Shown: positions 1 to 25,763 of the stretch, piece after piece
Numbering within the stretch: the first letter of the stretch is position 1
How the letters are laid out: the number at the start of each line of letters is the position of its first letter
DNA from: Candidatus Omnitrophota bacterium
Lineage (GTDB): Bacteria > Omnitrophota > Gorgyraeia > Zapsychrales > Fredricksoniimonadaceae
NCBI GenBank assembly: GCA_903901225.1
Contig: CAIUQE010000006.1
Location: 15,369 to 79,368 of the forward strand
Direction: 5' to 3'
Length of the DNA: 64,000 bases
Position numbers and translations under genes: made by a program
The notes under the pieces: generated by a model
What the model saw: the letters and a program-made list of their open reading frames with translations, nothing else
What the model was told of the DNA's origin: nothing
The model's database searches: none

Positions 1-650
1 AACCGGCCTGTCGTCGATCTTGACGCCGCCCGTTGTTTCAAGGCCTTTCGCATCCCTGCGCGACCCGTCCAGGCTTAACGCCTGATGGGCCTTGGCGGCA
101 TCCGAAGACTGGCTCGTCTCAACCCCGACCTTGACATCGGTATTGTCGATCTTTGTTGACCCTCCCAGGGTCAAAGCCCCCTCTTGCGTGCCCGCCGTTG
201 TCCGGGCTACGCTGGTCAATGCCTGGAGCGACGTTGTCTCGTTCACCTTCGTCGTTCCTCCCAGTGAAACCGTGCTCTGGGGGCCGGTACCAACCCCTCG
301 CGTCACGGCCGCCATCGCGTCGAGCGATGTCTTGTCATTGATCTGACCTTTACTGCCCAAAGCCACAGTCTGTGAAAGCTCACCTGTGCGCGCCTTCGCG
401 AGGGTGATATCCGTGCTGACAGCCAATTTGGGCGTAACATTTGCCGCAACACCCGCCCTGGTGGCCGTACCCGCGCTGCCCACGGTCTCCTCAAGTGTTC
501 CTTTGAGCTTGTTGGTCAGCTGGCGGTCAACACCGAGTGTTGTTGCCGTAGTTCCCGTCCCTGATACCTCGACCTGTTCCTTCAAGCGGATGTCCGTCTT
601 CTCGTTGAGGGCATATTGCGCCTCGGCCGCCGCCGTAGCGCTGTTGCTTT
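1..650 (-). repeat. Thr/Gly-rich ~33-aa tandem coding repeats at the C-terminal end of the giant protein (within the window)
   Basis: Translated units such as TSLDAMAAVTRGVGTGPQSTVSLGGTTKVNET / TSLQALTSVARTTAGTQEGALTLGGSTKIDNT recur consecutively. Confidence 0.5.
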
Positions 651-3600
651 GTTGCGTCGTGGCTGTCCCGTTACCCTTGGTCTGGGTACTCGCAAAAGCC
701 TCTGTCAACCTCAGGCGACGCGCGTCATGGACCAGCTGGACCAGGGTCGTTGTTGTCTCCTGCCCGCCCACCTGCATCGCGGTCTGCAAATTGCCGCTGG
801 TGATCAATCGCTGGACATCCCGGCTCGCGGTCAAGCGGGTGACGGGCGTCATGTCAAAGGTCATGGCCATCCCGTTCATGCTCTTGCCCTGCTGGGATGT
901 GGTCCCGCCCGTCGAGAAGCCATCCCCGATCCATTTGTAGTAACTCTTCAGGCCGACCCTGTCGAAGAGGCGCGCGTCCTGCGTGATCCCGTACGCTTTG
1001 CCGTTGCTGCCCGCGGCACCCGACAGGTCGCTGAATGTGATGCCGCCATCCGTCGATATAAAATTATTCTGGGCCGCGGCGACGGTTTCGGCATATTCGG
1101 CATGCACGGTAGAATCCTTGGCCAGGTGGACGGTCACATCCTCCCCGCCCAACTGGTACTTGCCCGCTGCCTGCGTTTCAGACACATACGTGGCCCCGGC
1201 CACGACATTCTTCCCCAAAGCCTTTGTCACGCGCGCTCCCTGGGTGCCCTCGGCCAGCTGGTCATGGACAAAATATTCATAATCCGCCACCACATACATC
1301 GGGTCCCCGCCGAGCAGGTTATTGGAGATCAGCTGGTTGTTATCAACGGACATGGACAAAGGGCGCCAGAAAAGGATACGCCCGTTGGAGGGGTCAATGG
1401 AATAATCAACGCCGCTCTTCATCTCCAAGGCCGATTTGACCAGCCCTGTGACCGCGTCCCTCACCTCGACCTTCACCTTGTCCGTGCCCTGCACAATATC
1501 ATTGTTCTTGAAATAATAGAGCGACCCGCCTGTGGCTAGGAATTCGTTATGCGCGGCGCGCTGATGGACTTCAGCGTGAAAGACCGCTATGCCGGTCTTC
1601 GCTTCACCGTAATCGGTCGTCGCCACACTCTTGTAATCCAGCTTCCCGCCATAAAGTGTCCGGGTATAATTCGCGAATTCCGTGTCGTTGAACGCCACCG
1701 CGTAATTACCCCAGATCGCCTGGGACTTGTCCCAATCAACAGAAAGATAGAGAGGCCCTTCCGTGTTCGCCGCGTCATAGTTCAGGGTTGAATTATCGCC
1801 GTAAACCGGATAATACGCATTATCCTTGAACGTGCGCAGGGCTGCCTTGGCCTGGCGCTCCGTGTCAAAACTCGACGTCACGATATATTTCCCCTGGATC
1901 TTGCCTTTAAGGTAATAAGCGATCTTGCCCTGGTCGTAGAACCCGCGGCGGTACTGGTCATTGCTCTGGACCGGTTCGATATGTCCGCGATCCATGTTAT
2001 ACCCGACCTTGCCGTCGCCCATAGCCACGAACATGAGGTAATCTTCCCCGACTTTCAGCGGTTTCCTGTAATGCGCCGTCTGCACCGGCGCCGCCTCAAT
2101 AACCTCAGGCGTTCCCGCCGTCATGGCACCTGCCTGTTCAGCCGGCCCCTGTTTTACCGCTCCCCCTCCCGCCGCGGCTTTAGGCCAGCCGCCCGGGCCC
2201 TTCTCCTGGGCCGTCACAACTTCAAGCTCATAATCCCCGTCAGGCAGGATGACCTCCATCGGTATCGCCTGTTCCTCGGTCTGCCCGGCCGCGAGGTCCT
2301 GCGCTGTCAATCCGTGATGCTCGGGCACGGGCACTTCCGCGAACACCTGGCCATTCCTGAGGACCACGACCTGCCGCACGTCGCTGCCAGCGGACTTGAG
2401 CGTGAGGGTATCCCCCTTGACCCAGATATTCCGGGTCTTCAAAGCGTCCCCTAGCGCGAGGGCGAGCAGGAAATCATGATATTTCTTCGTGCGGGCCGTT
2501 GCCTCGTCCTTCTTTTCCTGGGCGGAACGCTGGCGCTGGCGATCAGCCATGTCGGCGTCGGTCATCACCTTCAACACCAGCGGCTGTTCTTTGGTCTCAT
2601 CCCACTTTTCATGCTCACCCTGGACCTTAAGCACAAACGCGTAATGATGGCTCGCCAGAAGATACTGGCCGGCCGCGTCCCTCCCGTCCCAATAAACCGG
2701 ATCATTGATGTTAGACCGGGTCCCTTTGAACGAACGCACCAGCTTTTTGGTATCCGCGTCAACGACATCAAGCTGCCACGACACCAGGAACGGCGCGTAA
2801 TTGGTGAACAGCCTAAACTCGATCTGCTCGATCACAGTGTCGTTATGCAACAAAATGTTGTCATTGAACATATTAACGTTCAGCCTGGGTTTGGGCGCGG
2901 TCGTGCTTTGGTCGACCTTCAGTTCTTTCTGGAAGTACTCCGCGTCCTTCCCTACGATCTGAGCGTTGTCCACATTCACGCCGAAATTGACCTTGATGAT
3001 GCTGCCAGGCGTAACATCCACCACCTGGACCTTGTCCGTGGTCAAATATGCGCCCGGCGGCAAGGTCCGTTCATCAAGCCTCAACAGATGCCGGCCGGGC
3101 ACAAGCGCCGGGATGTGGAACTGCCCGTTCTCATCCGCCGTCACCACAGTGCCGTCTTCCATGGCAAGGCTGACATTGGGCACAGGCCCTTCGATGACCT
3201 TCTGTCGGTCTTCATAACTGTACTGCGGGTCATCCTGCCGGCCGTTCTCGTTCCAGTCATAGAACACCTTGCCGAACACGGTCCCCGCGTCAAAAAGCGG
3301 ATCAAGGACAATCTTGACAGTGGCGACGGTCTTGTTGGAGATAATCAGGCCCGTGGGATACTGCATGGTCGCCACGTTATCATAGGCTCCGGGCGCCACA
3401 CCGGCACCGATGACCAGCTGATAACGCACGATCTTCTTCTGCCCGGGCGTAAAATCGCCAGGGAGGAAGGTGAGCGGCCTGTTGCCCGTCGGATCGGGCA
3501 TGGGGACCCCATCCAGCAACGCGCGCCCGTTCATGTACTTGAACCCCGGCGGGATCACGTCGACAAACCTCGGAGCGATCACCGAATTGGTCTTGGAAAG

Positions 3601-6600
3601 GCATTCAATGCTGACCGTGTAGGTCACAACTTCGCCGATCCTGGCTTCCGTCTTGTTGGACTTTTTCTCGATCCTGAAAAGATACGGATTAGCATCCAGG
3701 GGCTGGTCCATCTGGTGGATGAGCCCATCCGTGATGAACACCTCACCGCGCGACCCCAGGAGAATCTTGCGGCCCGCCGGAAGCTTTTCATCAGAAAGGA
3801 TGGTTGGATAACTGTAACCCAGCGCCGTTATCACAATCTTATAGCTGGCATTCACTGTCAGGAAAGAATAAATGCCATCCGCTCCCGTTACCATCGGATT
3901 AGTATCCGTAAGCGCTATATCCGTCCCCTTCACCGCCATTGTCCCGTCCGCCTTTAACATCAACACCGATGCCCCCTTAAGCGGCTGGTTGGATGAGGAG
4001 TCGAACACGATACCGTAGACATCGTTCACGATGAATGTCTTGATCGCGCTGGAAACGCCGTCTACGATCACAGAAACATAATTGGAGCCGCGCGAAAGGT
4101 TCCTGGTCAACGCGAAGGAGAATGTCCCGTCCGCGGCAACAACCCCCTGCCCCATGTAAGCTTCCGGGGGCAATGACAAAAGATACAGATCAGCCTGGTC
4201 CTTGGCAACGACAAACACCTGGCTTCCCGGTTTGGCGTTGCCCTGGATCACGGGTTGGGATGTAACGATCGTCTGCTGGTCCACGGGAGAGGTGATCACC
4301 GGGACCTGGGCCGCTGTCGGCGCGACAACGACCGAAAAGGTCGAAGAATCTCCGGTAATGATCCCGTAATATGGCGTGATCGTGTTCGTCACCGGATGGT
4401 TCGGGTCAGAGTCAAGGGCAAACTTGGTCACCGTTCCCAGGGACGCGTCATCTTTCCCGACCACAACACGGAAATTCCCGTTCGTGTCAGCCTTGGCCGA
4501 AGCGATCACCGTGCCGGTACCGTCCTTGAGGGTCACATCATGCCCGGGGACTCCGTGGCCGATGATGGTCGGCACCGGGCCGACAACGGTGCCCGGGGCC
4601 GGGGTCACGATGTTCAGGGTGAAAAATATCCAGTGGATATTGGTCGGCGTAACTCCATTCTTGTTGTCCGTGGAATTCGTGGCAATGATATCCGTCGCCG
4701 GATTCACCGGAAAATTCGGGAACACGGCCGTTGAATCGCGCACGTCGACGAAACCTGCCAGCGGTGCCGCGTTAAGGATGGTCAGCGACCAGGATGTGGA
4801 ACCGCCTCCTGACGTGCTATCCGTCGTCGAACGGAGGATCAGCTTGTTTGCCGCGTTACCCGCCAGGTCCAGGGACCCCGTGATGGTCTGGTTGGATCCC
4901 TGCGCGAATTTGATGGTCTTGGCCCCCGATGATATCTGGGACGCGACGTCCTGGAACACCGTGTCACCGCTGACAGTGACCGTATTGTTCCCGCTGAAGG
5001 TGACCTTGCCGCTATTGTGGACAAAGCTTCCCGCTGTATGGGCAAACCCTCCCTGCACCGTGAAACTCTTGCCACTGCCCGGCGCCGTAAAATTACCGCC
5101 CGTCATCGCGAAATCGCCACGCAGGTCGATGGCCTTGGCTCCGGCGTTAAGCGTCGCGCCGGCCACGCCCAGGTTCCCGTAAATGGTCATGTCCACCGCA
5201 TTCACAAAAGTGGAAGGCGTCCCCGAAAGATTGTTCTCGATCACAAGATTGTAGAACAGGTTCGGGGCCGTAAGCGGGAAACTGCTCCCGATGACGCCAT
5301 TGCCGCGGTACACAAAAGTCCCCGAATAAATATCCGGATCAACAATATTAACGGCTTCGTCACCCTGAAGATAAATTGTGCCGTCGTTGGCAAAAGCTCC
5401 CGTCACGTCAAACTTATAACCATCCGCGTAAAGCCTGGCATCCACATCCAGCGTCATGTTGAGCAGGTTAATGTCATATTGTTCGGGATCCGGCGGCACA
5501 TGCGGCACCGTAAAATGCGGCACGTTCGTCACGCCGCCCGGTATCCGGACGCTGTCCGCGACCACCGCGCCATGCGCGTTCATCGGCACAAGCCCAAGGT
5601 CCCAGTTATTGGGCACGCGCCAGTCCGTGGAAAGGGCTCCAGTCCATGTGAACAGCGTCGACCCGAAAACCCAGTGCGTATTGTTGTACATCGCGGCGGC
5701 ATGAGGCGTGGAATCCCGCGCCACAAGCCAAAGACCTCCGCCGGCATTGGAATCCGTGACATCGACGTAGTTGATATGCTGAAGGCCTCCCGGCACCAGA
5801 GATATCCCCGCGGCATTGCTGCCCAGGTCCGATTTCAGGAAAAGTTCGTTGCCCGCGATCCCCTGCAGGGTCAACTCATTGGTGATCGTCTGTACCGCCG
5901 TATGGTCAAATATGAGCTGGTGGACTTGGATCCCCGCGGGGATCGTTTTGGTCAATTTATAAAATGTCGTGCTCCCGTTCAAAGCCTGCGCGGTCGCCCC
6001 CATGGTCGAGGTCGCATCCAACGCGACAGTCCCGTGATTCGCGTCAAATCCGGCACCGGCCGTATTGGTAAAATTCCCGGCGACGGCAAGCGTTTTTCCA
6101 CTGCCAGGCGCCAGGAACGAACCGCCGGTCATCACGAAATCATGCCCGATATCCAGGGCCGCGGCCGTTGCATCAAGCGATGAACCGCTAATGGTCAGCG
6201 TGCCGTAGATCGCCAGGTCCACATTCGCCGTGAACGCGGAGGCTGACCCCGTGAAAGGCGCATGGACAATAAGATTGTTGAACATCACAGGTCTCCCCCC
6301 GCCCGTGATGGTGAACGGCGCACCCGTCCCATCCCCGTGATACACAAAAGTCCCGTTGTAAATATCCGGGTCAGCGATATTCACCGCCTCACCGCCGTCA
6401 AGGTAGATCGACCCGTCATTGACGAACGTCCCCGACACCGTGAGGCCATGCCCGTCCAGATAAAGGCTCGCGTCAACCGCGTACAGGCCTAGGTCCACAA
6501 GGACAGGCGAGCCTGACCCCGCGGTCAGGTGCGGCTTGTCCGCCGTGCTCGGTATCTGAACACTGTCGCCGTTCCTCGGGACAAGGCCGAGGTCCCAGTT

Positions 6601-8640
6601 CGACGGCACATCCCACGCGGTATGCGACAGCGCGAGCGGGCTCGGTGTCCCATCCCAGACAAAGGTCGCCGCCCCGAATACCCAGTGCGGATAATTGCTG
6701 ATCCCGGCGGAAGACCCTCCCCCGACCAGCAACAGACCTCCGACAGCGCTGTTATCCTGCACCGACACATTATGGATATCCTGGACACCGCCCGTGGCCA
6801 GCAGCAGGAATGGCGCAGTGCCTGCCGACGAACTGACGATATCAAGCCGGTGGGTGCTGTCAATGCCGTTAAGGGTGAGCTTATCCGCCACCATATACGT
6901 GTACGGCGTGCCCGGGCCAACCCCGACCCCGAAGGTCAAAGTTTCAGGCCCCGTGGCCACGTTCTTCGTCAAGCCATAGAAGGCGATACTGCCGGTGACC
7001 GTCTGGTTGGAACCCACAGCCGGGTTTGCCAATACGACCGTCCCGTCATTGGGCGTGAACGTCCCCGCGGTACGCGTAAAATCCCCGGAAACCGTGAAAG
7101 CGTGAGAAGCATCCGGCGTTACGAAAGACCCTGCCGACAAAACAAAATCATGCAGGCTCAGATTCCCGGACTGGGCATCGACGGCCCCCCCGTTCATCGC
7201 GGTCCCATGCTCCACCGTGAGGGCCTTGCCGGAGGCCAGCAGGACGCTTCCAGCCGTGAATGTCGCGTCCGTGTATACGGTCAGATCGACCCCGATGGTG
7301 AATGTCCCGTGCGAACTCCTCGAAGAATCGTCGACGATCAGTGAATGATACCCGGCCAGCGGCGTTCCGGCGACCGTGAAATTCGTGGTGATATCAACAC
7401 CCGCGCCACTGGGCCTACCCAGATATTTGAAAACACCGGCGTCATTCAGGGCCGCGGTCACAACCGCTTCATTCCCGTCCAGATAAATGGCGCCGTCATT
7501 GACCAGGGCGGCGGACAGCGTGGCGTTATGCCCGTCGAGCGTCAGCGTGGTGCCGCTGCCGATGTTCAGCGTGCCGATAACAATATCGCCATCAAGAACA
7601 GGATCATACACAGTTCCGTCGACGATAAGGGCCGTATCCCCGTCCTCAGGCACCACGCCCAGGCTCCAGTTAAAGGCATTATCCCAGTGAATATCATAGC
7701 CACCCGTCCAGGTCTCCGTGATCGCGCCAAACTGCCAGTGCGTGTTATTGTACAGAAGATGGTCCGAATGGTCCAAAGAAGCGCGCCCCAGCAGCACCAT
7801 ACCGCCGGTGGCGTCATTGTTCCACACATTAACGTAGCGGATATCCTGGACCCCTCCCGTGGTAAGGATAAGCCCCGCGGCCGGATTGAGCACCGCCGGA
7901 ACCCCGGCGCTGTTATTCAGTGTCAACAAGTGTCCCGCGTCAAAACCGCGCAGGGTGAGGCTGTTGTCAACCCTCTGGGTCAGCCCCGGGGGGAAGACCA
8001 GTGTGCGCGCGGTCGTGGTCGGCATGACTTTCCTCAACGCGTAGAACGTTGTGCCGCCGAGGATCTGCTGGTCAGCCCCGTCAAGGATGACCCTGTTATT
8101 ACCATGAACATAAGACAAGGGCAACGCGGGAGAAACATTGTTCCACGTCCCTGTCACGTTCATGGGCATCCCGTTCGCCTCAAAGATCCCGGCGAGATTG
8201 TTAAAATCCCCCCGGATATAGATCCCGGCGTCAACGGCCGGAATGATGAGCCCCAGGCGCGCGGTCGATTCATGGGTCAAGTTATAGAACGTATCTGTCA
8301 CAAGCTTCCCGGCATAAATGGTCTGCAAGCCGGCCGCGGCGGAAAAGACCACCGTCCCTGTGCCAGAGTCATAATAACCGGAACCATAAATGGCCCAGTC
8401 ACCGTTGAGACGGATCTTCCCCGTGGTGGTTTTGATGACCCCGCGGTTGGTCACCAGACCGGGATGACCGTTGGCCGTTTCAACTTTCAAAGTACCTGTA
8501 TTAACGTTCAGGCGGGAATTGGCAGGGACAGTAACACCGGCCGCCCAGGCGGCATAACACGTCAAGAATACCGCGCACGCGGCAAAAACCGCGATCTTGA
8601 CGCTCTCGAAGAGCTTGTGCAAAGACTCACGCGCCGACAT
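1..8640 (-). CDS. Giant secreted repeat-containing surface protein (adhesin/S-layer-like), C-terminus truncated by window edge
   Basis: Manual minus-strand translation from ATG at 8640 is open for >2880 codons down to position 1; it is absent from the ORF track because no stop falls in the window. N-terminal signal peptide (MSARESLHKLFESVKIAVFAACAVFLTCYAAWAAG). Four tandem ~340-aa units ending in NNTHWQFG / NYPHWVFG / MYNNTHWVFG / TNIHWIFF with beta-helix-like NxxG/T-rich repeats. These are followed by Ig-like domains, a conserved-repeat-domain-like segment (TYTVSIECLS), a Cna-B/SdrD-B-like segment (GKVFYDWNENGRQDD), a CarbopepD-reg-like segment (GIVFDSSSNQPLKGASV), a beta-strand-rich region and Thr/Gly-rich short tandem repeats. 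Confidence 0.85.
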   Translation of the reverse strand, partial: MSARESLHKLFESVKIAVFAACAVFLTCYAAWAAGVTVPANSRLNVNTGTLKVETANGHPGLVTNRGVIKTTTGKIRLNGDWAIYGSGYYDSGTGTVVFSAAAGLQTIYAGKLVTDTFYNLTHESTARLGLIIPAVDAGIYIRGDFNNLAGIFEANGMPMNVTGTWNNVSPALPLSYVHGNNRVILDGADQQILGGTTFYALRKVMPTTTARTLVFPPGLTQRVDNSLTLRGFDAGHLLTLNNSAGVPAVLNPAAGLILTTGGVQDIRYVNVWNNDATGGMVLLGRASLDHSDHLLYNNTHWQFGAITETWTGGYDIHWDNAFNWSLGVVPEDGDTALIVDGTVYDPVLDGDIVIGTLNIGSGTTLTLDGHNATLSAALVNDGAIYLDGNEAVVTAALNDAGVFKYLGRPSGAGVDITTNFTVAGTPLAGYHSLIVDDSSRSSHGTFTIGVDLTVYTDATFTAGSVLLASGKALTVEHGTAMNGGAVDAQSGNLSLHDFVLSAGSFVTPDASHAFTVSGDFTRTAGTFTPNDGTVVLANPAVGSNQTVTGSIAFYGLTKNVATGPETLTFGVGVGPGTPYTYMVADKLTLNGIDSTHRLDIVSSSAGTAPFLLLATGGVQDIHNVSVQDNSAVGGLLLVGGGSSAGISNYPHWVFGAATFVWDGTPSPLALSHTAWDVPSNWDLGLVPRNGDSVQIPSTADKPHLTAGSGSPVLVDLGLYAVDASLYLDGHGLTVSGTFVNDGSIYLDGGEAVNIADPDIYNGTFVYHGDGTGAPFTITGGGRPVMFNNLIVHAPFTGSASAFTANVDLAIYGTLTISGSSLDATAAALDIGHDFVMTGGSFLAPGSGKTLAVAGNFTNTAGAGFDANHGTVALDATSTMGATAQALNGSTTFYKLTKTIPAGIQVHQLIFDHTAVQTITNELTLQGIAGNELFLKSDLGSNAAGISLVPGGLQHINYVDVTDSNAGGGLWLVARDSTPHAAAMYNNTHWVFGSTLFTWTGALSTDWRVPNNWDLGLVPMNAHGAVVADSVRIPGGVTNVPHFTVPHVPPDPEQYDINLLNMTLDVDARLYADGYKFDVTGAFANDGTIYLQGDEAVNIVDPDIYSGTFVYRGNGVIGSSFPLTAPNLFYNLVIENNLSGTPSTFVNAVDMTIYGNLGVAGATLNAGAKAIDLRGDFAMTGGNFTAPGSGKSFTVQGGFAHTAGSFVHNSGKVTFSGNNTVTVSGDTVFQDVASQISSGAKTIKFAQGSNQTITGSLDLAGNAANKLILRSTTDSTSGGGSTSWSLTILNAAPLAGFVDVRDSTAVFPNFPVNPATDIIATNSTDNKNGVTPTNIHWIFFTLNIVTPAPGTVVGPVPTIIGHGVPGHDVTLKDGTGTVIASAKADTNGNFRVVVGKDDASLGTVTKFALDSDPNHPVTNTITPYYGIITGDSSTFSVVVAPTAAQVPVITSPVDQQTIVTSQPVIQGNAKPGSQVFVVAKDQADLYLLSLPPEAYMGQGVVAADGTFSFALTRNLSRGSNYVSVIVDGVSSAIKTFIVNDVYGIVFDSSSNQPLKGASVLMLKADGTMAVKGTDIALTDTNPMVTGADGIYSFLTVNASYKIVITALGYSYPTILSDEKLPAGRKILLGSRGEVFITDGLIHQMDQPLDANPYLFRIEKKSNKTEARIGEVVTYTVSIECLSKTNSVIAPRFVDVIPPGFKYMNGRALLDGVPMPDPTGNRPLTFLPGDFTPGQKKIVRYQLVIGAGVAPGAYDNVATMQYPTGLIISNKTVATVKIVLDPLFDAGTVFGKVFYDWNENGRQDDPQYSYEDRQKVIEGPVPNVSLAMEDGTVVTADENGQFHIPALVPGRHLLRLDERTLPPGAYLTTDKVQVVDVTPGSIIKVNFGVNVDNAQIVGKDAEYFQKELKVDQSTTAPKPRLNVNMFNDNILLHNDTVIEQIEFRLFTNYAPFLVSWQLDVVDADTKKLVRSFKGTRSNINDPVYWDGRDAAGQYLLASHHYAFVLKVQGEHEKWDETKEQPLVLKVMTDADMADRQRQRSAQEKKDEATARTKKYHDFLLALALGDALKTRNIWVKGDTLTLKSAGSDVRQVVVLRNGQVFAEVPVPEHHGLTAQDLAAGQTEEQAIPMEVILPDGDYELEVVTAQEKGPGGWPKAAAGGGAVKQGPAEQAGAMTAGTPEVIEAAPVQTAHYRKPLKVGEDYLMFVAMGDGKVGYNMDRGHIEPVQSNDQYRRGFYDQGKIAYYLKGKIQGKYIVTSSFDTERQAKAALRTFKDNAYYPVYGDNSTLNYDAANTEGPLYLSVDWDKSQAIWGNYAVAFNDTEFANYTRTLYGGKLDYKSVATTDYGEAKTGIAVFHAEVHQRAAHNEFLATGGSLYYFKNNDIVQGTDKVKVEVRDAVTGLVKSALEMKSGVDYSIDPSNGRILFWRPLSMSVDNNQLISNNLLGGDPMYVVADYEYFVHDQLAEGTQGARVTKALGKNVVAGATYVSETQAAGKYQLGGEDVTVHLAKDSTVHAEYAETVAAAQNNFISTDGGITFSDLSGAAGSNGKAYGITQDARLFDRVGLKSYYKWIGDGFSTGGTTSQQGKSMNGMAMTFDMTPVTRLTASRDVQRLITSGNLQTAMQVGGQETTTTLVQLVHDARRLRLTEAFASTQTKGNGTATTQQSNSATAAAEAQYALNEKTDIRLKEQVEVSGTGTTATTLGVDRQLTNKLKGTLEETVGSAGTATRAGVAANVTPKLAVSTDITLAKARTGELSQTVALGSKGQINDKTSLDAMAAVTRGVGTGPQSTVSLGGTTKVNETTSLQALTSVARTTAGTQEGALTLGGSTKIDNTDVKVGVETSQSSDAAKAHQALSLDGSRRDAKGLETTGGVKIDDRPV
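4640..8535 (-). repeat. Four tandem ~1 kb coding repeats (~340 aa each) inside the giant protein gene
   Basis: Repeat units delimited by recurring ...GGVQDI(R/H)xV.V.DN.A.GG..LLV....NTHW.FG...W.G....W....NW.LG.VP..GD motifs. Approximate unit ends at nt 7725, 6702, 5691 and 4640. Confidence 0.55.
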
Positions 8641-8763
8641 CAAGTATTAATATTCATATTCAGTGTTTGATAGATATTTTAACTTATTTCATCATATTAA
8701 ATAGAAAATACGATTAAATCCATTTTTAAAATATTTTAATATTAAAAGAAAAGTGAGGATCGA
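8641..8763 (-). promoter_or_regulatory. AT-rich intergenic promoter region upstream of the giant protein gene
   Basis: About 75% AT in a ~60% GC genome (tattaatattcatattcagtgtttgatagatattttaacttatttcatcatattaaatag...). It lies immediately 5' of the ATG at 8640. Confidence 0.4.
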
Positions 8764-9471
8764 TCAGGAAAGCATCGCGAGGAAAGCCGTCACGGCAGTT
8801 TCGACACGCAGGATTCGGGGGCCCAAACCGGCTAAAATACAACCGGCGGCCTGGAAACGTTCAAGTTCGTAAGGAATAAAGCCACCCTCCGGCCCGATGA
8901 TGAGCACTGCCCGTCCTTCAGCTCCCTTGCTTAAAGGTCGGCCCGAAGGATCAGCCACGATCCCCTGGCGGCCCTGAAGAAAATGCGGCAGAACATCTTC
9001 GACAAAAGGCTTGAACCTCTTATGGTAAGTGACAGAAGGCAGGACAGTATCCCTGGCCTGTTCCAAACCAAGGATCAATTGCTCCCGGATCTCGCCAGGA
9101 ACAAGGGCCGAGCTGTTCCAGAAACTTTTCTCGACACGGCGCGCATGAAAGATATGGATCTGGGGTACGCCCATGGCCGCGGCGGTCTGAAGGACGCGTT
9201 TGAGGACCGGCGGGCGCATGAGCGCCACCGCGAGGATGACAGGGACCTTGGGCGGAGGATCAGCGTTGAGCGCGACCTCCATCTCAAGTTCCGTATCCGT
9301 CAGGCGCAGGACCTTGCCCTGCCCTATCTGCCCGTCCTCCATCCCCACGTTGAGCACATCGCCAGGACTGGCGCGATGGACCGAAAGGACATGCGCGTGC
9401 CGGCGGCCCCTCAGCAGGGCCCTTGACGTGTGCGGGATAATGTCAGGCGCGGCAAGAAGAACGAGGTTCAT
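8764..9471 (-). CDS. rsmE: 16S rRNA (uracil1498-N3)-methyltransferase RsmE
   Basis: 235 aa with a PUA-like N-terminus and the C-terminal SPOUT motif GPEGGF...LG.RILRVETA. Confidence 0.85.
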   Translation of the reverse strand: MNLVLLAAPDIIPHTSRALLRGRRHAHVLSVHRASPGDVLNVGMEDGQIGQGKVLRLTDTELEMEVALNADPPPKVPVILAVALMRPPVLKRVLQTAAAMGVPQIHIFHARRVEKSFWNSSALVPGEIREQLILGLEQARDTVLPSVTYHKRFKPFVEDVLPHFLQGRQGIVADPSGRPLSKGAEGRAVLIIGPEGGFIPYELERFQAAGCILAGLGPRILRVETAVTAFLAMLS

Positions 9472-9952: not shown

Positions 9953-12139
9953 ATGTCGATTAGAATGTCACTTCCTATGAATTTCGCGGACACCTTATCC
10001 AAATATAATTTTCCCGAGGAATACAAACAAGCCCTTCTCGCCACGGGGATCGTGACGCTCCATCCCCCGCAGGCCGCCGCCATTGACGCTGGCGTCCTGG
10101 AAGGGAAGAACGTCGTCCTGGCCGTACCCACGGCTTCGGGAAAAACCCTGATCGCGGAACTGGCCATGCTCAAGGCCATCTTTGAAAAGAACGGCCGCTG
10201 CCTCTACATCGCGCCGCTGAAAGCTTTGGCCAGCGAAAAATACCGGGAGTTCCAGAAAAAATACGCGCCCCTGGGCATCAAGGTCGGGATCGCCATCGGC
10301 GACCTTGACTCGCCCAGCGCCTATCTGAAGAATTACCAGATCGTGATCGCGACCGCCGAAAAAGTGGACTCGCTCCTGCGCGCGCGCTCCGACTGGTTCA
10401 TCAATGACCTGGCGGTCACGGTGTTCGACGAGATCCATGTCATCAACGACCCCTCCCGCGGCCCGACGCTCGAGATCCTCGCCACCCGCATCCGCCTGCT
10501 GAACCCGGCGATGCAGGTGCTGGCTTTGTCGGCAACGGTGGCCAACGCCAAAGACATGGCGGACTGGCTCGGAGCCGGAGCTGTCGTCAGCTCATGGCGG
10601 CCCATTCCCCTGCACGAAGGCGTTTACTACAACGGCCGGCTGACCTATGAGAACGGCAACATCCGCGTGATCAAGGAAGATGCCCCGGAAGAGGTCCAGC
10701 AGCTGGTGATGGACACCCTGCGCGGCAAAGGGCAGGCGCTGGTCTTCGTCAATTCACGGCGCTCAACGCAGGCGGTGGCCCGCGAACTTTGCCGCTGGGT
10801 GGGGACACTTCTGACACCGGAAGAGCGGGAGACGCTCAAAGATGTCGCCGCGCGCGTCGCACCACCGCTGGAAAGCACCAAGGTCTGTCAAAAACTCGCG
10901 GAGGTCGTGATCCATGGCGTCGCCTTCCACCACGCGGGCCTGCGTCCCGACCAGCGGGAAGCGGTCGAGGAGAATTTCAAAAAGAATATCATCAAGGTGA
11001 TCTGCTGCACACCCACGCTGGCCGCCGGGGTCAACCTGCCGGCCCGGCGCGCGATCATCCGCGACGCCAAACGCTACGCCTCGGGCGTGGGGTCTGTTTT
11101 CATCCCGGCTTCCGAATACAAGCAATGTGCCGGCCGCGCGGGGCGTCCCCAGTACGATGACTACGGCGAAGCCGTACTGCTCGCGAAATCCCTTTCCGAC
11201 CAGGACGCTTTGTTCGAGCGCTTTATCCTCGCGCCCCCCGAGCCCGTGATGTCCCAGCTGGCCAATGAGCACCAGCTGCGCAAACACGTCCTTGCCTCGA
11301 TCGCGGGAGGCTATGTCAATGATGTCAACGGGATGTTCGAATTCCTCAGCCACACCTTCCTTGCGCATCAGCACAAGGGCGCGAATCTGGTCGAACTTGT
11401 GGGCAACATCTTTGACTTCCTGCACAAAGAACAGTTCATCGACAAGAGCGGCTTCCGTTTTTTTGCCACGCCTTTCGGCGCGCGGGTCAGCCGCCTTTAC
11501 ATCGACCCTCTCTCGGCGCTGGTCATCCGCAAAGGCCTGGCGCGGATCGCCTCAGGCGCGAATTTTTCGTCGATCGGGATATTGCACCTGATCTGCTCCT
11601 GCCCCGACAGTGAAAAACTTTCCGTGGGCAAGACCGACCTGGAAGACCTCGAGGATTTCGGCAACAAGGTCGTTGACGAACTGGCGCTGTCGCCAGAGGA
11701 TATTGAAGCCACGCAGGACCACTACACCGCGCTGGGCGTCCTCAAGACCGTCTGGCTTTTATTGCGCTGGATGGATGAAGAAAAAGAGGAAGATATCTGC
11801 GAACGCTTCAATGTGGGCCCCGGTGATGTTTTCCGCCACACGGAATCGGCCCAGTGGCTGCTCTACGCCGCCCAGTCCATTGCCGAGGTCTACCAGTTCA
11901 AGCAACTGACCCATTTTCTCAACGGGCTCCAGAGCCGCGTGCGTTACGGGATCAAGGAAGAGCTCCTGGAACTGGCGAACCTGCGGGGCATCGGCCGCAT
12001 CCGCAGCCGCATCCTTTTCAACAAGGGCTACAAAACCATCGCCGCGCTCGGGAAACTCTCCGCCGAAGACCTGGGCCACATCAAAGGCATCGGGCTGGCT
12101 TTGGCCAAAGACATCCTGAAACAAACCGCCTCACGATGA
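9953..12139 (+). CDS. Hel308/Ski2-like superfamily-2 DNA helicase with C-terminal helix-hairpin-helix domain
   Basis: 728 aa. Q-motif and Walker A (AVPTASGKT), DEIH box, SAT motif ([10 protein letters not shown]), and C-terminal HhH ([46 protein letters not shown]). The size and domain order match archaeal Hel308/Hjm. Confidence 0.8.
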
Positions 12140-15100
12140 CGTTCCCGTCCCCGCGCCAAAGCCCATAAAATTCCGAACATCACTCACCGGCTGAACATTG
12201 ATGATCAGCGGCAGGATACCCTGGACGTCCTGGTCCAGCGCCTTGACCTGCGCCGGAGAAAGGTCGAACCTGAATGCCCCCGCGTCACCCTGGACATCCA
12301 TCCCCGCGGCCTGGTCCGTGAGGTCGATACCGCCGTCGATCTCGGCTTTAGTGGACTGACTGCGGTCCTTGCCATTCCGATGCGACACCGGTTTGTTCTT
12401 AGGACGACTCTTATAATTATTCCCCTTAGCCACCCCATTACGGCCATCTGGTTTCATTACAAGAAGGGGTTTACTTAAAGCAACCGTTGTTTTCATGTTG
12501 TTTATTTTTTGATCCTCTTGTTTACCTGCAAAGCTGGCCTCGTAGAATCTGCGAGCTGTACGCCCATTTTTCTCCATGAACTTCTCAGCCTCCTGTCCCG
12601 ATAAAGGCATCAAATACACCACATCGCCATATCGCGCACCGGACACAGCGCTCGCCTCTTGCTGGGCAAGGAACAACGCATAACGTGCCTCGCCATAACG
12701 GGAAAAAAGTACCATAAAATGCCTGAATCGCGGGTCTGACTTTTCACGCATATCTTTGACCCACTTTCGCGTAGCAACCTTCGCCTGAGAGTTGCCATTT
12801 AAAAATTCTTCAAAGGGGATTTTATTTACCTTACAAAAAGACGCCATGGCATCCCTGGCACTATCCCTTTTGCCAACAGCCTTTTGAACATTTATTACAG
12901 TTATCTTTTTGACCGAAATGCGTTCTTCCGCAGAAAGCAAAGACAATTCGATTATTCTTTTATAAGTTTCATACGTTCTTGGCCCTCCCACATTCCATGA
13001 AGCTCCCCACGTGATAATTAAGATCCGTTCTGGTGACAATTGAGGATATTCTTTACATAACTGCACAAATGATGCCACCATTGATCTGCGTGACGCAAGC
13101 CGGGTCTTTATCTTGGCTGGCATGGTCACCTGTCCTCGCAACATATCAAACGAACGGGAGTAATAATCATCGGCGGGAACATAGGGCTCCCTGGCAAAGA
13201 TATCATCCATGAACGTTAGTTGAAAGATCAACTGCAACTTGGTATCATTCATCCCCATTTTAAACGCTTTCGGAACAAGCCAATGATCCTTATCTGCCAT
13301 ATATCCCATGGCTTTCGACAGGGCAACAACATGTTTATATTCACGCTCATAACCCGCCCCTCTTAAACGCTCCAGCACTGGTATCGCGATCTTGAACATC
13401 TGTTGGGCTGTTGTGGGTTGGATCTGCAAATATCCGATGGTCGACGAGCGCTCCTTGGCATCCCGAAGGGACTGATTATTCCCGAAACCACTTTCAATGC
13501 CCGACTCCCCGATCCATATCTGGAACAAAACCCTGGAGGATATGCCCGCGGCCTTGAAATTCGGCGCCAGATCATCGTAATACCGCTGGAACATTTTTGC
13601 CATGTCATCGTACGTCGCATTTGGTTTTCCCATCATTTTGATCAGGATTTCCTGGGCGGTGTATTTCTTCGTGGGACGGCCACTCCTGCCATCTTCCAAT
13701 ATCTTGAAATTCTTTGCCACATTCTGAAGCATTTCCTTAACATCCTGCCCGGTCAACTTTTTTTCCTTCTGTTCCACAACGGCAATATGTTTCGGGATCG
13801 CCAGCTTCTCAATCACAAATTTACCGCCGACCGCCATCGCCACGGCCAACGACAACCCCAACAATATCTTTCCACCTGAAGAAGATTTATTCTCAATCCC
13901 GGATTTTATGGCCCTGGCCAATGTCGTGACAAGTTTAACAGCCACCTCCTTAAAACTCCCCTGGGCATTGTCGGGTGAACCATCCTTGACATCCATCGAA
14001 GCATCCATATCTTCCGCCACAAACCCGCCGGAGAAATATTTGCGCGGGATAAGTTCCTGGGAATAAGTATCGAGCTCTTCCTTGATCAGGCTGTAAGCGC
14101 CTTTCCGGAACGCCTCAACGTACCTGTCATAGATCTGCCGGTTCTCTTCCCGCGGATGCGCGATCTCATTGCCCTGCGTCTTGTGCCGGTCGATGAACAC
14201 CTGCGCGAACACATTGGCGTCCGTCCCTTGTATTCCCGTCACAAGCCCGGCACTGGCCATCAATTTCCTCTTGAGCCAGGCCGAAAGGACGAGCGCGTGA
14301 ACGATCTGGCGAAGCATGGCAAAATTCGCGCCTTCATTGACCTCTTTCTCCAGCACCGGTAACACAATCTCGCGCAGGACCCCTTTGGCCAGGAGGACGG
14401 CACTATTGTCAGGTACACCAGCTGCGGGCACAAGCGCATTGGCCTGCGCCGCTGTAACATCCCCGGCAGGAGCCGGGGATTCCGCCATGCCCCTCTGATG
14501 GGACATGGCTACATAGTCAGATTCCAGCATGACCTTGAGCTCAACCTTATCCACGAACGCGGATATCTGCTTGCCATCGGGGCCCAGCATCTCGTGGACC
14601 AGCGAACGGCCGGGCATGATCCAGACCTTGTTGAACGTATCGACCGGGATATCGGTGGTGCCATAAGCCTCGTAGGCGCGGCGGTACACTTCCTTCCAGA
14701 ACACCTTGCCCGTCTCACCGTCAGGATGAAGGAGCGATGCGGTCAACTGCTTGAGGATATAATCCTGGGCCAGCAGGTCGCGCCCCATGGCCGTGCGCCC
14801 GAGGTCCTCCTGGACAATCCGCTGGCTTTCATACGGTGACAGGTTGACCCACAGGTCCTTGTTCGGGATCGTCAGCGACACCAGAAAATATTTGATGAGC
14901 CGCATCGAGACATCATTGAATTCCTGTTGTGCCAGCGCCGCGCGGCCTTCATCGAACAGGAAATCCATGCGCAAAGGGTCACTCGCGTCCACGCGCATCC
15001 CCCGCAGGAGGCACGGCGCGCTCGCGGGGCTGAGCGCCACCATCTGCCCCGCGGGCGGAAGGACAAGCCCCTGGGCCATGGCCGCGGGCACGACCCCGGT

Positions 15101-15148
15101 CACGATGAACGCCAGACAGACAATGGACGCAACCATACGCCTTATCAT
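12131..15148 (-). CDS. Modular envelope protein: signal-peptide-like N-terminus, conserved ~350-aa N-module, hydrophobic segment, SLT lytic-transglycosylase-like domain, conserved C-terminal GGIDL module (paralog A)
   Basis: 1005 aa. N-terminal [25 protein letters not shown]. The N-module ([30 protein letters not shown]..., [19 protein letters not shown]) is shared with the ORFs at 22371-25583 and 25764-28748. The SLT signature is [15 protein letters not shown]...[11 protein letters not shown]. The C-terminus GGIDLTDQ...[21 protein letters not shown] is shared with the two paralogs. Confidence 0.8.
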
Positions 15149-16027: not shown

Positions 16028-16473
16028 GACAGCATCTCATCCTCTTTACGGCGCATCAGCGCGCGTTCACCGGGCGTGGCGTCATCATGCCCCAGAAGAT
16101 GGAGGATGCCGTGCGCCACATAACGCAACACTTCACGGCGGGGCGCCTCGCCGAACAGGCGCGCGTTGCGGTACGCCTCGGCCGGGCAAATGACCAGCTC
16201 CCCGTCGAAAGGCGCACGGGCGTGGTCCCTGAGGTCAAAGGTGATGATATCCGTCACATGGTCATGCCCCAGCCGCTCGCGGTTAAGGCGGCGCATGGCC
16301 GTGGGCGTCACAAAAGCAATGGAAAGCGTCCCGGCCTTCACGCCCGAACGGGCAAGGAATGTCGCGGCAGCCTTACTGGCCGCCGGGGCCGTCAGAGGGA
16401 CTTTCGTCCGCTGTGGATTTGCTACCGTGATTTCCATTGGCCTTTTTAGGATTGGGATATTTGACGCGGACAT
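16000..16473 (-). CDS. ybeY: Endoribonuclease YbeY (rRNA maturation factor)
   Basis: Conserved HGILHLLGHDD metal-binding motif and ~150 aa size. The start codon is uncertain because the ORF overlaps the upstream gene. Confidence 0.85.
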   Translation of the reverse strand: MSASNIPILKRPMEITVANPQRTKVPLTAPAASKAAATFLARSGVKAGTLSIAFVTPTAMRRLNRERLGHDHVTDIITFDLRDHARAPFDGELVICPAEAYRNARLFGEAPRREVLRYVAHGILHLLGHDDATPGERALMRRKEDEMLSWLSLPLKG

Positions 16474-17803
16474 GGTACATGGCGGAAAGCTCGCGCGAGA
16501 ACATCCGCGTCACGGTATCGATCTCGCGCAGCGTGAGCGCGCACTCGTCAAGCTGCCCGTCGATGAATTTGTTGTTGATGACCTTGCGGACCATGTCGCT
16601 GATCCTGTTGGGCGTGTGCTCGTCCAGCGCGCGGGTGGCGCCTTCGACGGAGTCCGCCAACATGACGATCGCGGTCTCACGGGTCTGCGGCTTCGGCCCG
16701 AGATAGCGGTAGTTCTCCTCGTTCACCGATTCCGTTTCCTGCTCGATCAACGCCTTCTGGTAAAAATAATGGATCAGGCTGGTGCCATGGTGCTGCTGGA
16801 TAAAATCGATCAGCTTCGGGCTCAACTTGGCCCGGCGCGCGATGTCGACCCCTTCCTTGACGTGGTTGAGGATCACCAGGCGGCTCATCGACGGCTCAAG
16901 GTCGTCGTGCTTGTTGTCCGCCATCATCTGGTTCTCGGTGAAATACTCGGGCTTCACCAGTTTGCCGATGTCATGGTAATAGGCGCCGACCCGCACCAAA
17001 AGCGCGTTCGCGCCGATGGCATCCGCCGCGGCCCCCGCCAGGTTACTGAGGATCAGGCTGTGATGGTACGTGCCCGGCGCTTCGAAAGCGAGGCGTTTCA
17101 ACAGGGGCTGCGTGAGCGAATCCGAAAGCTCCAGCAGGCTGAAATTCGTCAGTTCACCGAAAAGCGTTTCAAAGATCTTGAGCGTCGCCAGGACCGCCGC
17201 CGCGGACAAAAGGCCGCTGGTAAAGAACGGCTCCAGGCCGTCGAGCAAAAGCTCTCTGGAAAATACCGGATGCACCAGGAAATAGCCAATGGCCTGTACC
17301 GCGCCCAGCAGGAGTCCGGCGAAAAGGATCGTGCCGCGGGTCCGCGCGCCGCTGATGGCGTAAGCCCCGGTCAACCCGCCGATAAAAACAATGATGCAAT
17401 AATCCAGCGGCATGCCGATCACAAGGCTCAGGACCGCGGCCGACATGAACGACATCGAGAACGCCAGCTGGAGGTCATTGAACAACAGCATGGCCAGCAT
17501 GGCCACGCTCGCCACGGGGATGGCGTACGGCGAAAAATGCAGGAACTCGACCATGTAATGCCCCGTGACGACAATGATCGTCAGAAGGAACCCGAGGTGC
17601 AGGAAGCGTTTGGCGTCAAGATGCCTGAAAAAAGCCAGATGGCACCCGTAAAAGGCCACAAGCAAAGGGATGAGCAAAGAAAACCCGGCCACCATGCAGT
17701 AGCCGAGCAGAATGAAAAAGAAAATACCTGCCGCGATGATGCCGTTGGTGGGTTTATTTATGATAGTGGTCATAAGCTTCAATGATCTTCTGCACCAGTT
17801 CAT
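16373..17803 (-). CDS. Membrane-associated HD superfamily phosphohydrolase (7TM-HD, PgpH/YqfF-like)
   Basis: Multiple N-terminal transmembrane helices followed by an HD domain (GAYYHDIGKL ... HHGTSLIHYF). Lies in the conserved phoH-pgpH-ybeY arrangement. The start may be the downstream Met at 17773. Confidence 0.8.
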   Translation of the reverse strand: MNWCRRSLKLMTTIINKPTNGIIAAGIFFFILLGYCMVAGFSLLIPLLVAFYGCHLAFFRHLDAKRFLHLGFLLTIIVVTGHYMVEFLHFSPYAIPVASVAMLAMLLFNDLQLAFSMSFMSAAVLSLVIGMPLDYCIIVFIGGLTGAYAISGARTRGTILFAGLLLGAVQAIGYFLVHPVFSRELLLDGLEPFFTSGLLSAAAVLATLKIFETLFGELTNFSLLELSDSLTQPLLKRLAFEAPGTYHHSLILSNLAGAAADAIGANALLVRVGAYYHDIGKLVKPEYFTENQMMADNKHDDLEPSMSRLVILNHVKEGVDIARRAKLSPKLIDFIQQHHGTSLIHYFYQKALIEQETESVNEENYRYLGPKPQTRETAIVMLADSVEGATRALDEHTPNRISDMVRKVINNKFIDGQLDECALTLREIDTVTRMFSRELSAMYHVRVKYPNPKKANGNHGSKSTADESPSDGPGGQ

Positions 17804-18701
17804 GACGGACCGTGTCCGCGGCCGTCAAGTGCACGAACTTGATCTCTTCGACGTTGCGCAGGACTTTCTCCGCCTCGATCAGCCCGATCGGCTGGCCCGA
17901 AGGAAGGTCGCTCTGGGTGACATCGCCCGTGATGATGGTCTTGGAATCGAAGCCGAGGCGCGTCAGGAACATCTTCATCTGTTCGGGGGTCGAGTTCTGC
18001 GCCTCGTCAAGGATGACGAACGCCTCGTTGAACGTGCGCCCGCGCATATACGCCAGGGGCGCAACCTCGATGATCCCCTGTTCCGCGTACTGCTCGACCT
18101 TGTCAGGCTCCAACATTTCATAGAGCGCGTCATACAGCGGCCTGAGGTAAGGCATGACCTTCTGTTCCAGTTCACCCGGAAGAAAACCCAGGTTCTCGCC
18201 CGCCTCGACGGCCGGACGGGTCAAAATGATACGGCGCACGAGGCCTTTCTTAAGCGCGTTGACCGCCATGGCCATGGCAAGATAGGTCTTACCCGTGCCC
18301 GCCGGGCCTATGCCAAAAACAATATCGAATTTCTTGATGGCTTCAACATATTCGATCTGCCCCTTGGTCTTGGGCGTGATGAGCCCTCCCTTGACCGGCA
18401 GTTCGATCTTTTCCTTGGAGAGGCGCTTGAGCCCGTCCTCTTTTTCCACCTCCGCGACACGGTTGGCATACTGGATATCGCGTTTCTTGACGCTGCGCCC
18501 GCTCTTGACGATGCCCAGCAGGTAATTGAAAAGTTCGCCGACCTGGTTGACCTTGTCATCCGGCCCGTCCACCCTCAGACCTTCCTGGATACGATAGATA
18601 CGGACACCAAATTCCTTTTCAATGGTCTTCAGGTTCTCGTCGTATTTCCCGAATAGGTGCTGGATATCGCGATTGTCGTCAAACTTGAGGTTCAGGATCA
18701 T
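17754..18701 (-). CDS. phoH: PhoH-like ATPase (PhoH/YbeZ)
   Basis: Walker A GPAGTGKTYLA. 315 aa with typical PhoH family conservation (ILTRPAVEAGE, FVILDEAQN). Confidence 0.9.
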   Translation of the reverse strand: MILNLKFDDNRDIQHLFGKYDENLKTIEKEFGVRIYRIQEGLRVDGPDDKVNQVGELFNYLLGIVKSGRSVKKRDIQYANRVAEVEKEDGLKRLSKEKIELPVKGGLITPKTKGQIEYVEAIKKFDIVFGIGPAGTGKTYLAMAMAVNALKKGLVRRIILTRPAVEAGENLGFLPGELEQKVMPYLRPLYDALYEMLEPDKVEQYAEQGIIEVAPLAYMRGRTFNEAFVILDEAQNSTPEQMKMFLTRLGFDSKTIITGDVTQSDLPSGQPIGLIEAEKVLRNVEEIKFVHLTAADTVRHELVQKIIEAYDHYHK

Positions 18702-19228: not shown

Positions 19229-19238
19229 AAACCGCCTC

Positions 19239-20642: not shown

Positions 20643-20655
20643 GTTAACTGCCTTT

Positions 20656-25535: not shown

Positions 25536-25763
25536 AGGAACCTCTCTTTGATAGCTTGACGTCACCAGTGCAAAGTATGCCACATATACCTTACTGCACG
25601 CAACTTTTTCAAAAAAGCTGAATGAAAGCTGAATTGACTCAAAAAAATAATTCCCATGGAAAATGGCCTCGTGAACTTTTTATACCCGCCTTATAAATCT
25701 ATTGCCGCAATGATCACATCCCGTTTTTTATGAAAAATCAAATTAAGTTCTCAGCTAGCATCT

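Follow-up and report, generated by a model that had tools for sequence, protein, structure and literature searches.

The Omnitrophota are ultra-small, uncultured and probably host-dependent bacteria, in which the building of the envelope and cell attachment are largely obscure. Earlier attention has gone to their giant open reading frames (ORFs) of more than 20 kb. In this work we focused on another large gene, located at the edge of a 64,000-nucleotide stretch of a Candidatus Omnitrophota genome (assembly GCA_903901225.1, contig CAIUQE010000006.1, positions 15,369 to 79,368 of the forward strand), hereafter called the window. An earlier note, made from the sequence alone, had pointed to a large secreted protein encoded there on the minus strand and running off position 1. 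The locus raises the question of what this gene encodes, how the protein is held in the envelope and on which side of the outer membrane it lies. We found that the gene is real and under purifying selection, and that its product is very probably a Sec-exported envelope protein anchored by a C-terminal module of the outer-membrane beta-barrel type. That the N-terminal 2,190 residues are displayed at the surface, making the protein a barrel-anchored adhesin or coat protein, is a reading to which we give about an even chance. The most interesting part is the C-terminal module, which is widespread and unannotated, the overall kind of protein (a barrel-anchored large envelope or surface protein) being already known.

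The minus-strand frame from 8640 to 1 contains 2,880 sense codons and no stop, and its absence from the ORF list is due solely to its running off the window, as the earlier note had recognized. In front of its start codon, an ATG at 8640, lie an in-frame stop and approximately 120 nt of AT-rich spacer. When the last 500 residues were searched against GTDB genomes, three loci resulted, all in metagenome-assembled genomes of Candidatus Omnitrophota, and the homologous ORF is complete in all three (3,357, 3,291 and 3,338 amino acids, aa). The orthologue at locus L001 (3,357 aa) shares 83.8% identity with all 2,880 residues of the window protein, with one gap and an identical start methionine. Because this orthologue is co-linear and 3,357 aa long, the window protein is short of about 477 C-terminal residues; the full gene is expected to measure about 10.07 kb, with its 3' end (about 1.43 kb) beyond position 1 of the window. 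Differences between the two genes fall at codon positions 1, 2 and 3 in the numbers 359, 200 and 987, and 798 codon changes are synonymous against 464 non-synonymous ones.

A gene that is long, repetitive, cut at the window edge and taken from an uncultured organism might be an assembly artefact, through a collapsed or chimeric repeat, or else a pseudogene whose protein is never made. We regard this as extremely improbable. The frame is free of stops over 8,640 nt and the bias of substitutions towards third positions is strong. The repeats described below are merely 22-44% identical as protein, and neither Tandem Repeats Finder nor a second repeat finder detected long near-identical repeats in the DNA. 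The four-unit layout and the architecture were seen again in more than 15 independent assemblies. A repeat-collapse misassembly, which the earlier note had allowed for, is made very unlikely by these last two observations and was rejected. The long plus-strand ORFs across 1-8670 are antisense shadows, as had been proposed; they had also been described as arginine-rich, which is true of five of the six (11-18% Arg), the sixth being rich in valine and proline.

The C-terminal module starts at residue 2191 (YRKPLKVGEDY...) and has a full length of about 1,000 aa, the last third of which lies outside the window. The beta-rich region GKYIVTSSFDTERQ (GKYIVTSS, aa 2250), for which a barrel- or porin-like nature had been suggested, is inside this conserved module, and a profile search of the window found no further copy of it. 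The module is without a Pfam or NCBIfam model, whether looked for in the window protein, the complete orthologue or 12 C-terminal modules. Searches against the sequences of solved structures with the window protein, the C-terminal 1,244 aa of an orthologue and the module profile gave only weak TPR matches, to the tail described below.

Twelve modules were aligned (alignment A1), and the structure was predicted with AlphaFold2 for the complete module of the orthologue P0002 (1,131 aa). The model contains about 46 long antiparallel strands in a meander between residues 100 and 1000, with a predicted local distance difference test score (pLDDT) mostly of 70-85, a small inserted beta domain at 177-227 and four long helices at 1006-1130. 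When the model was compared with known structures using Foldseek, 48 of the 50 matches listed were outer-membrane barrels, nearly all with a probability of 0.9-1.0, among them LptD, Deinococcus SlpA, SprA, TonB-dependent receptors, MtrB and FimD. Single members of the family also match barrel families weakly (BBP2, OMP_b-brl, KdgM, DUF2490, YfaZ), and one relative is named 'outer membrane beta-barrel protein' by NCBI. Distant relatives terminate exactly in a classical beta-signal, for example ...GGWFMRLQGKF. In the Omnitrophota proteins the equivalent strand, GPYLRMTGKLY, is internal and is followed by a helical tail of about 120 aa, which is TPR-like, TPR models matching the tail in half of the members. 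The suggestion of a barrel thus gained from the predicted meander, from the Foldseek matches and from the weak porin-type Pfam matches.

For the covariation analysis, 254 complete modules were aligned and submitted to reduced-alphabet mean-field direct coupling analysis (224 effective sequences for approximately 700 columns). At the level of single pairs the result was swamped by gap artefacts, and it was informative solely when summed along antiparallel strand ladders. Summed in this way, covariation is higher for strands adjacent in the model than for the others (mean 0.15 versus 0.07, standard deviation 0.036), which supports the meander.

The Thr/Gly-rich repeats at the end of the window had been described as C-terminal. 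Their periodicity is real, the value at 32 aa for residues 2600-2880 being 0.15 against -0.03 for the 95th percentile of shuffled sequences and above every shuffle level, but their position is not terminal. In the AlphaFold2 model they correspond to strand-turn-strand elements, that is, to predicted beta-hairpins in the middle of the module, and about 477 residues follow in the orthologue, comprising more hairpins, the conserved last strands and the TPR-like tail. Module length ranges from 1,105 to 1,303 aa in the orthologues and from 800 to 880 aa in distant relatives.

A separate observation concerns the first 100 or so residues of the module (aa 2191-2290, nt 1771-2070, minus strand). They are its most conserved part, with many invariant columns (FVAMGDGKVGYN ... 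YYPVYGDxS), and are also modelled worst by AlphaFold2 (pLDDT 23-45). This region could be a plug, a segment threading the lumen or a segment binding a partner.

At the other end of the protein, the first 34 or so residues look like a Sec signal peptide, with the hydrophobic core IAVFAACAVFLTCYAAWA and a likely cleavage near AWA|AG. As the earlier note had it, a signal peptide is the natural reading, for this is the sole hydrophobic stretch on the Kyte-Doolittle scale in the 2,880 aa and there is no further membrane helix. Four tandem units follow, of about 340 aa each and about 1,300 aa in total. Self-BLAST of the whole protein returned the identity match only, and the repeats emerged when segments were searched against the masked protein; the units were then defined by these searches, by MAFFT alignment and by a hidden Markov model (HMM) of the unit. 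Unit 1 is truncated at its N terminus and lacks the first 25 or so positions of the profile. The ending NTHW(V/Q)FG, given earlier for every unit, holds for units 1 and 3 and is replaced by other endings in units 2 and 4 (Table 1).

That there are four units of a beta-helix-like kind was borne out. AlphaFold2 modelled units 2-3, from 12 aligned unit pairs, with a pLDDT of 89.3 and a predicted template modelling score (pTM) of 0.76, and the model is composed wholly of short strands. In a Foldseek search of the PDB, all of the matches listed, though weak, were repetitive beta-rich proteins, mostly right-handed beta-helices, and many of them are surface or secreted proteins (PL6 lyases, Ag43, IgA1 protease, EspC, RsaA, Fap2, VacA, EtpA and phage tailspikes). 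The predicted model supports a beta-solenoid or beta-helix-like fold for the units as a fold class, without assignment to a particular family. Neither Pfam nor NCBIfam has a model for them, and a search of a word-indexed protein collection with the unit profile returned three short fragments only. By the unit HMM, orthologues carry four, three or two units, and related units are met many times among further very large proteins, from other lineages. In the neighbourhood of one orthologue, P0013, an IS200-type Y1 transposase gene (L004 2747-3433) ends exactly at the start of the orthologue, and another protein, P0016, has a precomputed PF01797 match, which in some lineages points to fused gene calls or to a 5' insertion.

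Between the units and the module lies a stalk in which Pfam and NCBIfam recognized the Ig-like, Cna-B-like and CarbopepD-like domains that had been predicted. The TIGR01451 match scored 24.5 bits against a cut-off of 24 (41 bits in the orthologue P0002), and the repeat that defines the DUF11/TIGR01451 'conserved repeat domain' proteins, with one or more matches to TIGR01451 or PF01345 over the cut-off, is thus present. Residues ~1950-2030 have the look of an FlgD-Ig-like domain, judged from their sequence, and the equivalent place in relatives carries a scored FlgD_ig match. The order of the stalk domains is common to distant relatives. The linker behind the stalk sits where many relatives have an OmpA-like peptidoglycan-binding domain; no OmpA-like domain was found by Pfam or NCBIfam in the window protein or its orthologues. 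The relatives P0017, P0019, P0029, P0254 and P0272, from other phyla, have this domain between the FlgD-Ig-like domain and the barrel module, a position that bears on the topology of the whole family.

Table 1. Features of the envelope-protein gene in the window and the conserved cluster found downstream of its orthologues
Feature	Residues	Position (nt)	Strand	Evidence
Envelope-protein gene, first 2,880 of ~3,357 codons	1-2880	1..8640	-	Open frame, orthologue co-linearity, third-position substitution bias
Putative Sec-type signal peptide	1 to ~34	8539..8640	-	Sequence and Kyte-Doolittle hydrophobicity
Predicted beta-helix unit 1, ends NTHWQFG (299-305)	38-305	7726..8529	-	Unit HMM positions 25-335 and alignment
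Predicted beta-helix unit 2, ends NYPHWVFG (649-656)	306-656	6673..7725	-	BLAST, alignment, unit HMM, AlphaFold2
Predicted beta-helix unit 3, ends NTHWVFG (987-993)	657-993	5662..6672	-	BLAST, alignment, unit HMM, AlphaFold2
Predicted beta-helix unit 4, ends TNIHWIFF (1333-1340)	994-1340	4621..5661	-	BLAST, alignment, unit HMM
Stalk of Ig-like and prealbumin-like domains (~700 aa)	1341-2035	2536..4620	-	Pfam/NCBIfam
Big_6	1358-1421	4378-4569	-	Pfam/NCBIfam
CarboxypepD_reg	1541-1610	3811-4020	-	Pfam/NCBIfam
DUF11 repeat	1659-1711	3508-3666	-	Pfam/NCBIfam
SpaA/SdrD_B (Cna-B-type fold)	1791-1885	2986-3270	-	Pfam/NCBIfam
Linker: charged, probably helical segment, small beta segment and Ala/Gly/Pro-rich spacer	2036-2190	2071..2535	-	Sequence, comparison with P0017, P0272, P0254
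C-terminal all-beta module, first ~60% (profile positions 1 to ~640 of 1,103)	2191-2880	1..2070	-	Profile E 3e-297
Thr/Gly/Ala-rich degenerate repeats of ~32-33 aa	2656-2880	1..675	-	Periodicity, AlphaFold2 strand-turn-strand
Downstream conserved cluster		L001 13008-18737 and 19065-20798; L004 11392-20099; L005 20070-26936

The distribution of the module extends far beyond the Omnitrophota. The module profile was searched against 1.84 billion representatives of protein clusters (50% identity), and at least 4,999 proteins matched with E<=1e-3, 2,559 of them with E<=1e-30. Among the 150 best matches listed, nearly all have the module at the C-terminal end of a protein of approximately 600-7,600 aa. 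Carriers that could be named come from Omnitrophota, Wallbacteria, Gemmatimonadota, Deltaproteobacteria, Thermodesulfovibrionia, Scalindua, Sedimenticola and Elusimicrobia, and their annotations include 'hypothetical', 'DUF11 domain-containing', 'SdrD B-like domain-containing', 'choice-of-anchor U' and 'outer membrane beta-barrel protein'. The commonest architecture, of 1,700-2,100 aa, consists of Ig-like, DUF11, SdrD_B, FlgD_ig, (OmpA) and Glucodextran_B-like domains followed by the module, and the window protein has this cassette from about residue 1524 on.

The genes that follow the giant gene are conserved as well. Downstream of it, and outside the window, all five loci spanning the family encode a secreted TPR-repeat protein and an AsmA/YhdP-like protein, and two of the five (L004 and L005) have a DsbH-like thioredoxin in the same cluster. 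The secreted protein is orthologous between loci, 980-1,956 aa long and highly charged, with TPR-like repeats of about 65 aa. A periplasmic interaction between this protein and the tail of the giant protein is a reasonable inference from sequence, because both carry a TPR-like motif of one kind.

We propose that, after Sec export, the machinery for assembling beta-barrels (BAM) would place the C-terminal module in the outer membrane as a single, very large barrel with about 40-46 strands. The helical tail would remain in the periplasm and dock on the co-encoded secreted TPR-repeat protein, with the AsmA-like protein encoded in the same cluster. The Ig-like stalk and the beta-helix units would traverse the outer membrane, the simplest route being the protein's own barrel, as in type V systems, and would reach about 50 nm outwards as an adhesin or coat element attaching to other cells or surfaces; this length, for about 2,150 aa of beta-helix and Ig-like domains, is an estimate from typical domain sizes. 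The number of beta-helix units (2-4) and the number of hairpins vary between lineages, and the N-terminal two-thirds diverges faster than the barrel start (67-84% versus 92-93% identity). Surface display is favoured because of the beta-helix and Ig-like domain types, the estimated length, the variable unit number and the faster N-terminal divergence. In its boldest form, the proposal would make the module one single-chain barrel of more than 36 strands, larger than SprA, acting as both translocator and anchor of its own multi-thousand-residue passenger. It would then define a new type-V-like class of self-export and anchoring in thousands of large surface proteins of Omnitrophota, Desulfobacterota, Nitrospirota, Planctomycetota, Elusimicrobiota, Gemmatimonadota and further lineages that are for the most part uncultured, coupled in Omnitrophota through the TPR-like tail to a dedicated periplasmic TPR-repeat/AsmA-like module. 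We consider this extended form unlikely.

A number of observations weigh against a surface-displayed, barrel-anchored protein, and they lend themselves to two other explanations. Many relatives carry the OmpA-like peptidoglycan-binding domain between the stalk, with its FlgD-Ig-like domain, and the barrel module, in a domain order otherwise as here, which speaks for at least that segment, and perhaps the whole N terminus, being periplasmic. The protein might accordingly be a periplasmic tether or scaffold with the barrel alone in the outer membrane; the N-terminal region, the TPR-like tail and the TPR-repeat neighbour would tie the outer membrane to the wall or organise the envelope, somewhat as in OmpM and SlpA. 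The best whole-query template modelling (TM) scores of the module are indeed to Deinococcus SlpA, the conserved neighbours (TPR-repeat protein, AsmA-like protein and, where present, DsbH-like thioredoxin) all face the periplasm, and both ends of an even-stranded barrel lie on the periplasmic side. Yet the OmpA-like domain is missing from the window protein and its orthologues, approximately 2,150 aa of rigid domains would by the above estimate far exceed the width of the periplasm, and the kinds of domain, the variation in repeat number and the faster N-terminal divergence suit an exposed protein better. On balance we find a periplasmic location rather unlikely, but a serious alternative to surface display. 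The matches of units 2-3 in the PDB also call for caution, being statistically weak throughout and none of them significant (best E 0.02).

The other points touch the barrel itself. Its model is of moderate confidence (mean pLDDT 69.8, pTM 0.41), the TM-scores to real barrels are low (0.1-0.26), and the top Foldseek match is no barrel at all, being the ApoB100 beta-belt, to which two of the 50 listed entries belong. The number of hairpins differs among orthologues, which is unusual for a closed barrel, and covariation between the first and last strands, as expected from closure, was absent among the 254 modules, in a test that was underpowered. The module might therefore be an amphipathic beta-sheet or belt that stays open, or else a number of smaller barrels, associated with the outer membrane or with lipid, and the whole be a peripheral coat or lipid-binding protein with a length adjustable by hairpins; modules of 800-1,300 aa in relatives, and the low hydrophobicity of the Thr/Gly/Ala-rich hairpins, would fit such a structure. 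This is harder to reconcile with the true outer-membrane barrels that make up all other listed Foldseek matches, with the C-terminal aromatic beta-signal of relatives and with the porin-type Pfam matches of individual members, and the missing closure signal counts for little given the few effective sequences per column. We judge this alternative to be quite improbable, and remain confident of anchoring by a module of the barrel type.

Within the window, the neighbours of the giant gene are housekeeping genes (RsmE, Hel308-like helicase, PhoH, AspRS, HisRS and DnaE). The gene of the RsmE-type RNA methyltransferase, at 8764-9471, lies upstream of the giant gene. Beyond it, at 9953-12139 (plus strand), lies a Hel308-like DEAD-box helicase with an 'archaeal helicase domain 4' (PF21280) and HHH_5, and a Hel308-like helicase adjoins RsmE and the giant gene also in L001 and L002. 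Three paralogues of about 1,000 aa are encoded at 12131-15148, 22371-25583 and 25764-28748, all on the minus strand. They have a common N-terminal module of about 380 aa (39-45% identity) and different C termini; the third has a GT2 glycosyltransferase domain, and the other two are without a Pfam match. The stretch between 22 and 30 kb is low in GC (41-49% versus about 57% elsewhere). These paralogues are presumably the 'modular paralog system' of which the earlier note thought the giant protein could be a partner or substrate. This link was rejected, for the trio has no sequence similarity to the giant protein and is absent near the orthologous genes in L004 and L005. Many long ORFs in the window also overlap in pairs on opposite strands, for example at 16166-17785 (plus) and 16373-17803 (minus), 17712-18656 (plus) and 17754-18701 (minus), and 19158-20639 (plus) and 19239-20711 (minus). 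In all three pairs checked, the Pfam domains (7TM-HD, PhoH and AspRS) are on the minus-strand member, and the ORFs opposite, on the plus strand, probably just mirror coding sequence that is rich in GC.

The gene described here suggests that the Omnitrophota have, besides the giant ORFs, a second class of large envelope proteins, one that is conserved. Its anchor module has no Pfam or NCBIfam model, and yet the proteins of at least 4,999 clusters (50% identity), spread over many phyla, end with it. If the module forms one barrel of about 40-46 strands, it would exceed the 36 strands of SprA, the largest known, and would raise the questions of how BAM assembles such a barrel and how a passenger of 2,000 aa crosses the membrane. 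Even on a conservative reading, thousands of proteins now called 'hypothetical', 'DUF11' or 'SdrD B-like' gain in annotation, through the module boundaries, the repeat-unit profile, the conserved gene cluster and the OmpA-like variant in relatives.

Among known systems, the protein would come nearest in its working to an autotransporter-type adhesin or to a tether of the SlpA/OmpM kind. With the type Va autotransporters (Ag43, EspP, IgA1 protease) it shares the order of Sec signal, beta-helical 'passenger' and C-terminal barrel; a predicted signal and a predicted beta-helical passenger are both present, and autotransporter passengers are among the weak structural matches. The type Va translocator is a 12-stranded PF03797 barrel of about 280 aa preceded by an alpha-helical linker, whereas the anchor here measures about 1,000 aa with about 46 predicted strands. 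Unlike in type Va proteins, about 700 aa of Ig-like stalk separate the barrel from the helix units in the window protein; its subfamily has a TPR-like tail behind the barrel, and its relatives an OmpA-like domain ahead of it. Even at E<=1, PF03797 was not found in the window protein, the complete orthologue or the 12 C-terminal modules, and membership of type Va was rejected for this reason and for the size of the module. Type Vb TpsA proteins carry a TPS domain (PF05860) at the N terminus, and their transporter, TpsB, is encoded by a gene of its own. This type was rejected because PF05860 has no match in the window protein and the neighbours are RsmE and the helicase upstream and the TPR-repeat and AsmA-like proteins downstream. 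In type Ve (intimin/invasin) an N-terminal barrel (PF11924) precedes a C-terminal Ig-like passenger; here the barrel module is C-terminal, which is the reverse order, and the window protein has no PF11924 match, so that type Ve was rejected as well.

The OmpM and Deinococcus SlpA tethers combine a wall-binding (SLH) domain, a coiled-coil stalk and a large C-terminal barrel, of 30 strands in SlpA. The likeness lies in a large C-terminal barrel behind a long N-terminal extension, in the query-normalised TM-scores of the module (0.20-0.21 for SlpA, the best obtained) and in the peptidoglycan-binding domain that relatives of the window protein carry upstream of the barrel. Unlike these tethers, the window protein has neither SLH domain nor coiled-coil stalk, and its N-terminal part is far longer and of beta-helix and Ig-like type. 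Membership was rejected, since SLH (PF00395) has no match in the window protein or the orthologue and no sequence similarity to the solved SlpA and OmpM chains was detectable. SprA, the translocon of type 9 secretion, has 36 strands and has been called the largest known beta-barrel (bioRxiv 10.64898/2026.03.07.710327). It resembles the module in being a single-chain barrel of exceptional size and is among its Foldseek matches; it differs in that the TM-scores are about 0.1, there is no sequence relation and no type 9 secretion context, and SprA is without a beta-helix and Ig-like extension of its own.

Within the phylum, the giant ORFs of Omnitrophota exceed 20-30 kb and encode proteins of as many as 85,804 aa that are poorly conserved, have numerous transmembrane helices and often contain SecA DEAD-like domains (Kizina; Seymour et al. 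2023; West-Roberts et al. 2023). The protein described here shares with them the phylum and a proposed role in cell attachment. Unlike them it has about 3,357 aa, a putative signal peptide as its only hydrophobic helix, a conserved sequence and a module common to many phyla. The idea that it is one of the giant surface proteins that are hallmarks of a few lineages was therefore given up, and it was not placed in the giant-ORF class, its gene measuring about 10.07 kb, without transmembrane helices beyond the signal peptide and without a Pfam or NCBIfam match to SecA/DEAD. Its true homologues, from the CarboxypepD_reg/DUF11 region to the C terminus, are the uncharacterised 'DUF11 / SdrD B-like' outer-membrane proteins of Omnitrophota, Desulfobacterota, Nitrospirota, Planctomycetota and others, with equal domain order and the same module. 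In comparison with these, the subfamily of the window protein has gained two to four N-terminal beta-helix units (about 1,300 aa here), has a helix-plus-linker segment instead of the OmpA-like domain and carries the TPR-like tail behind its barrel.

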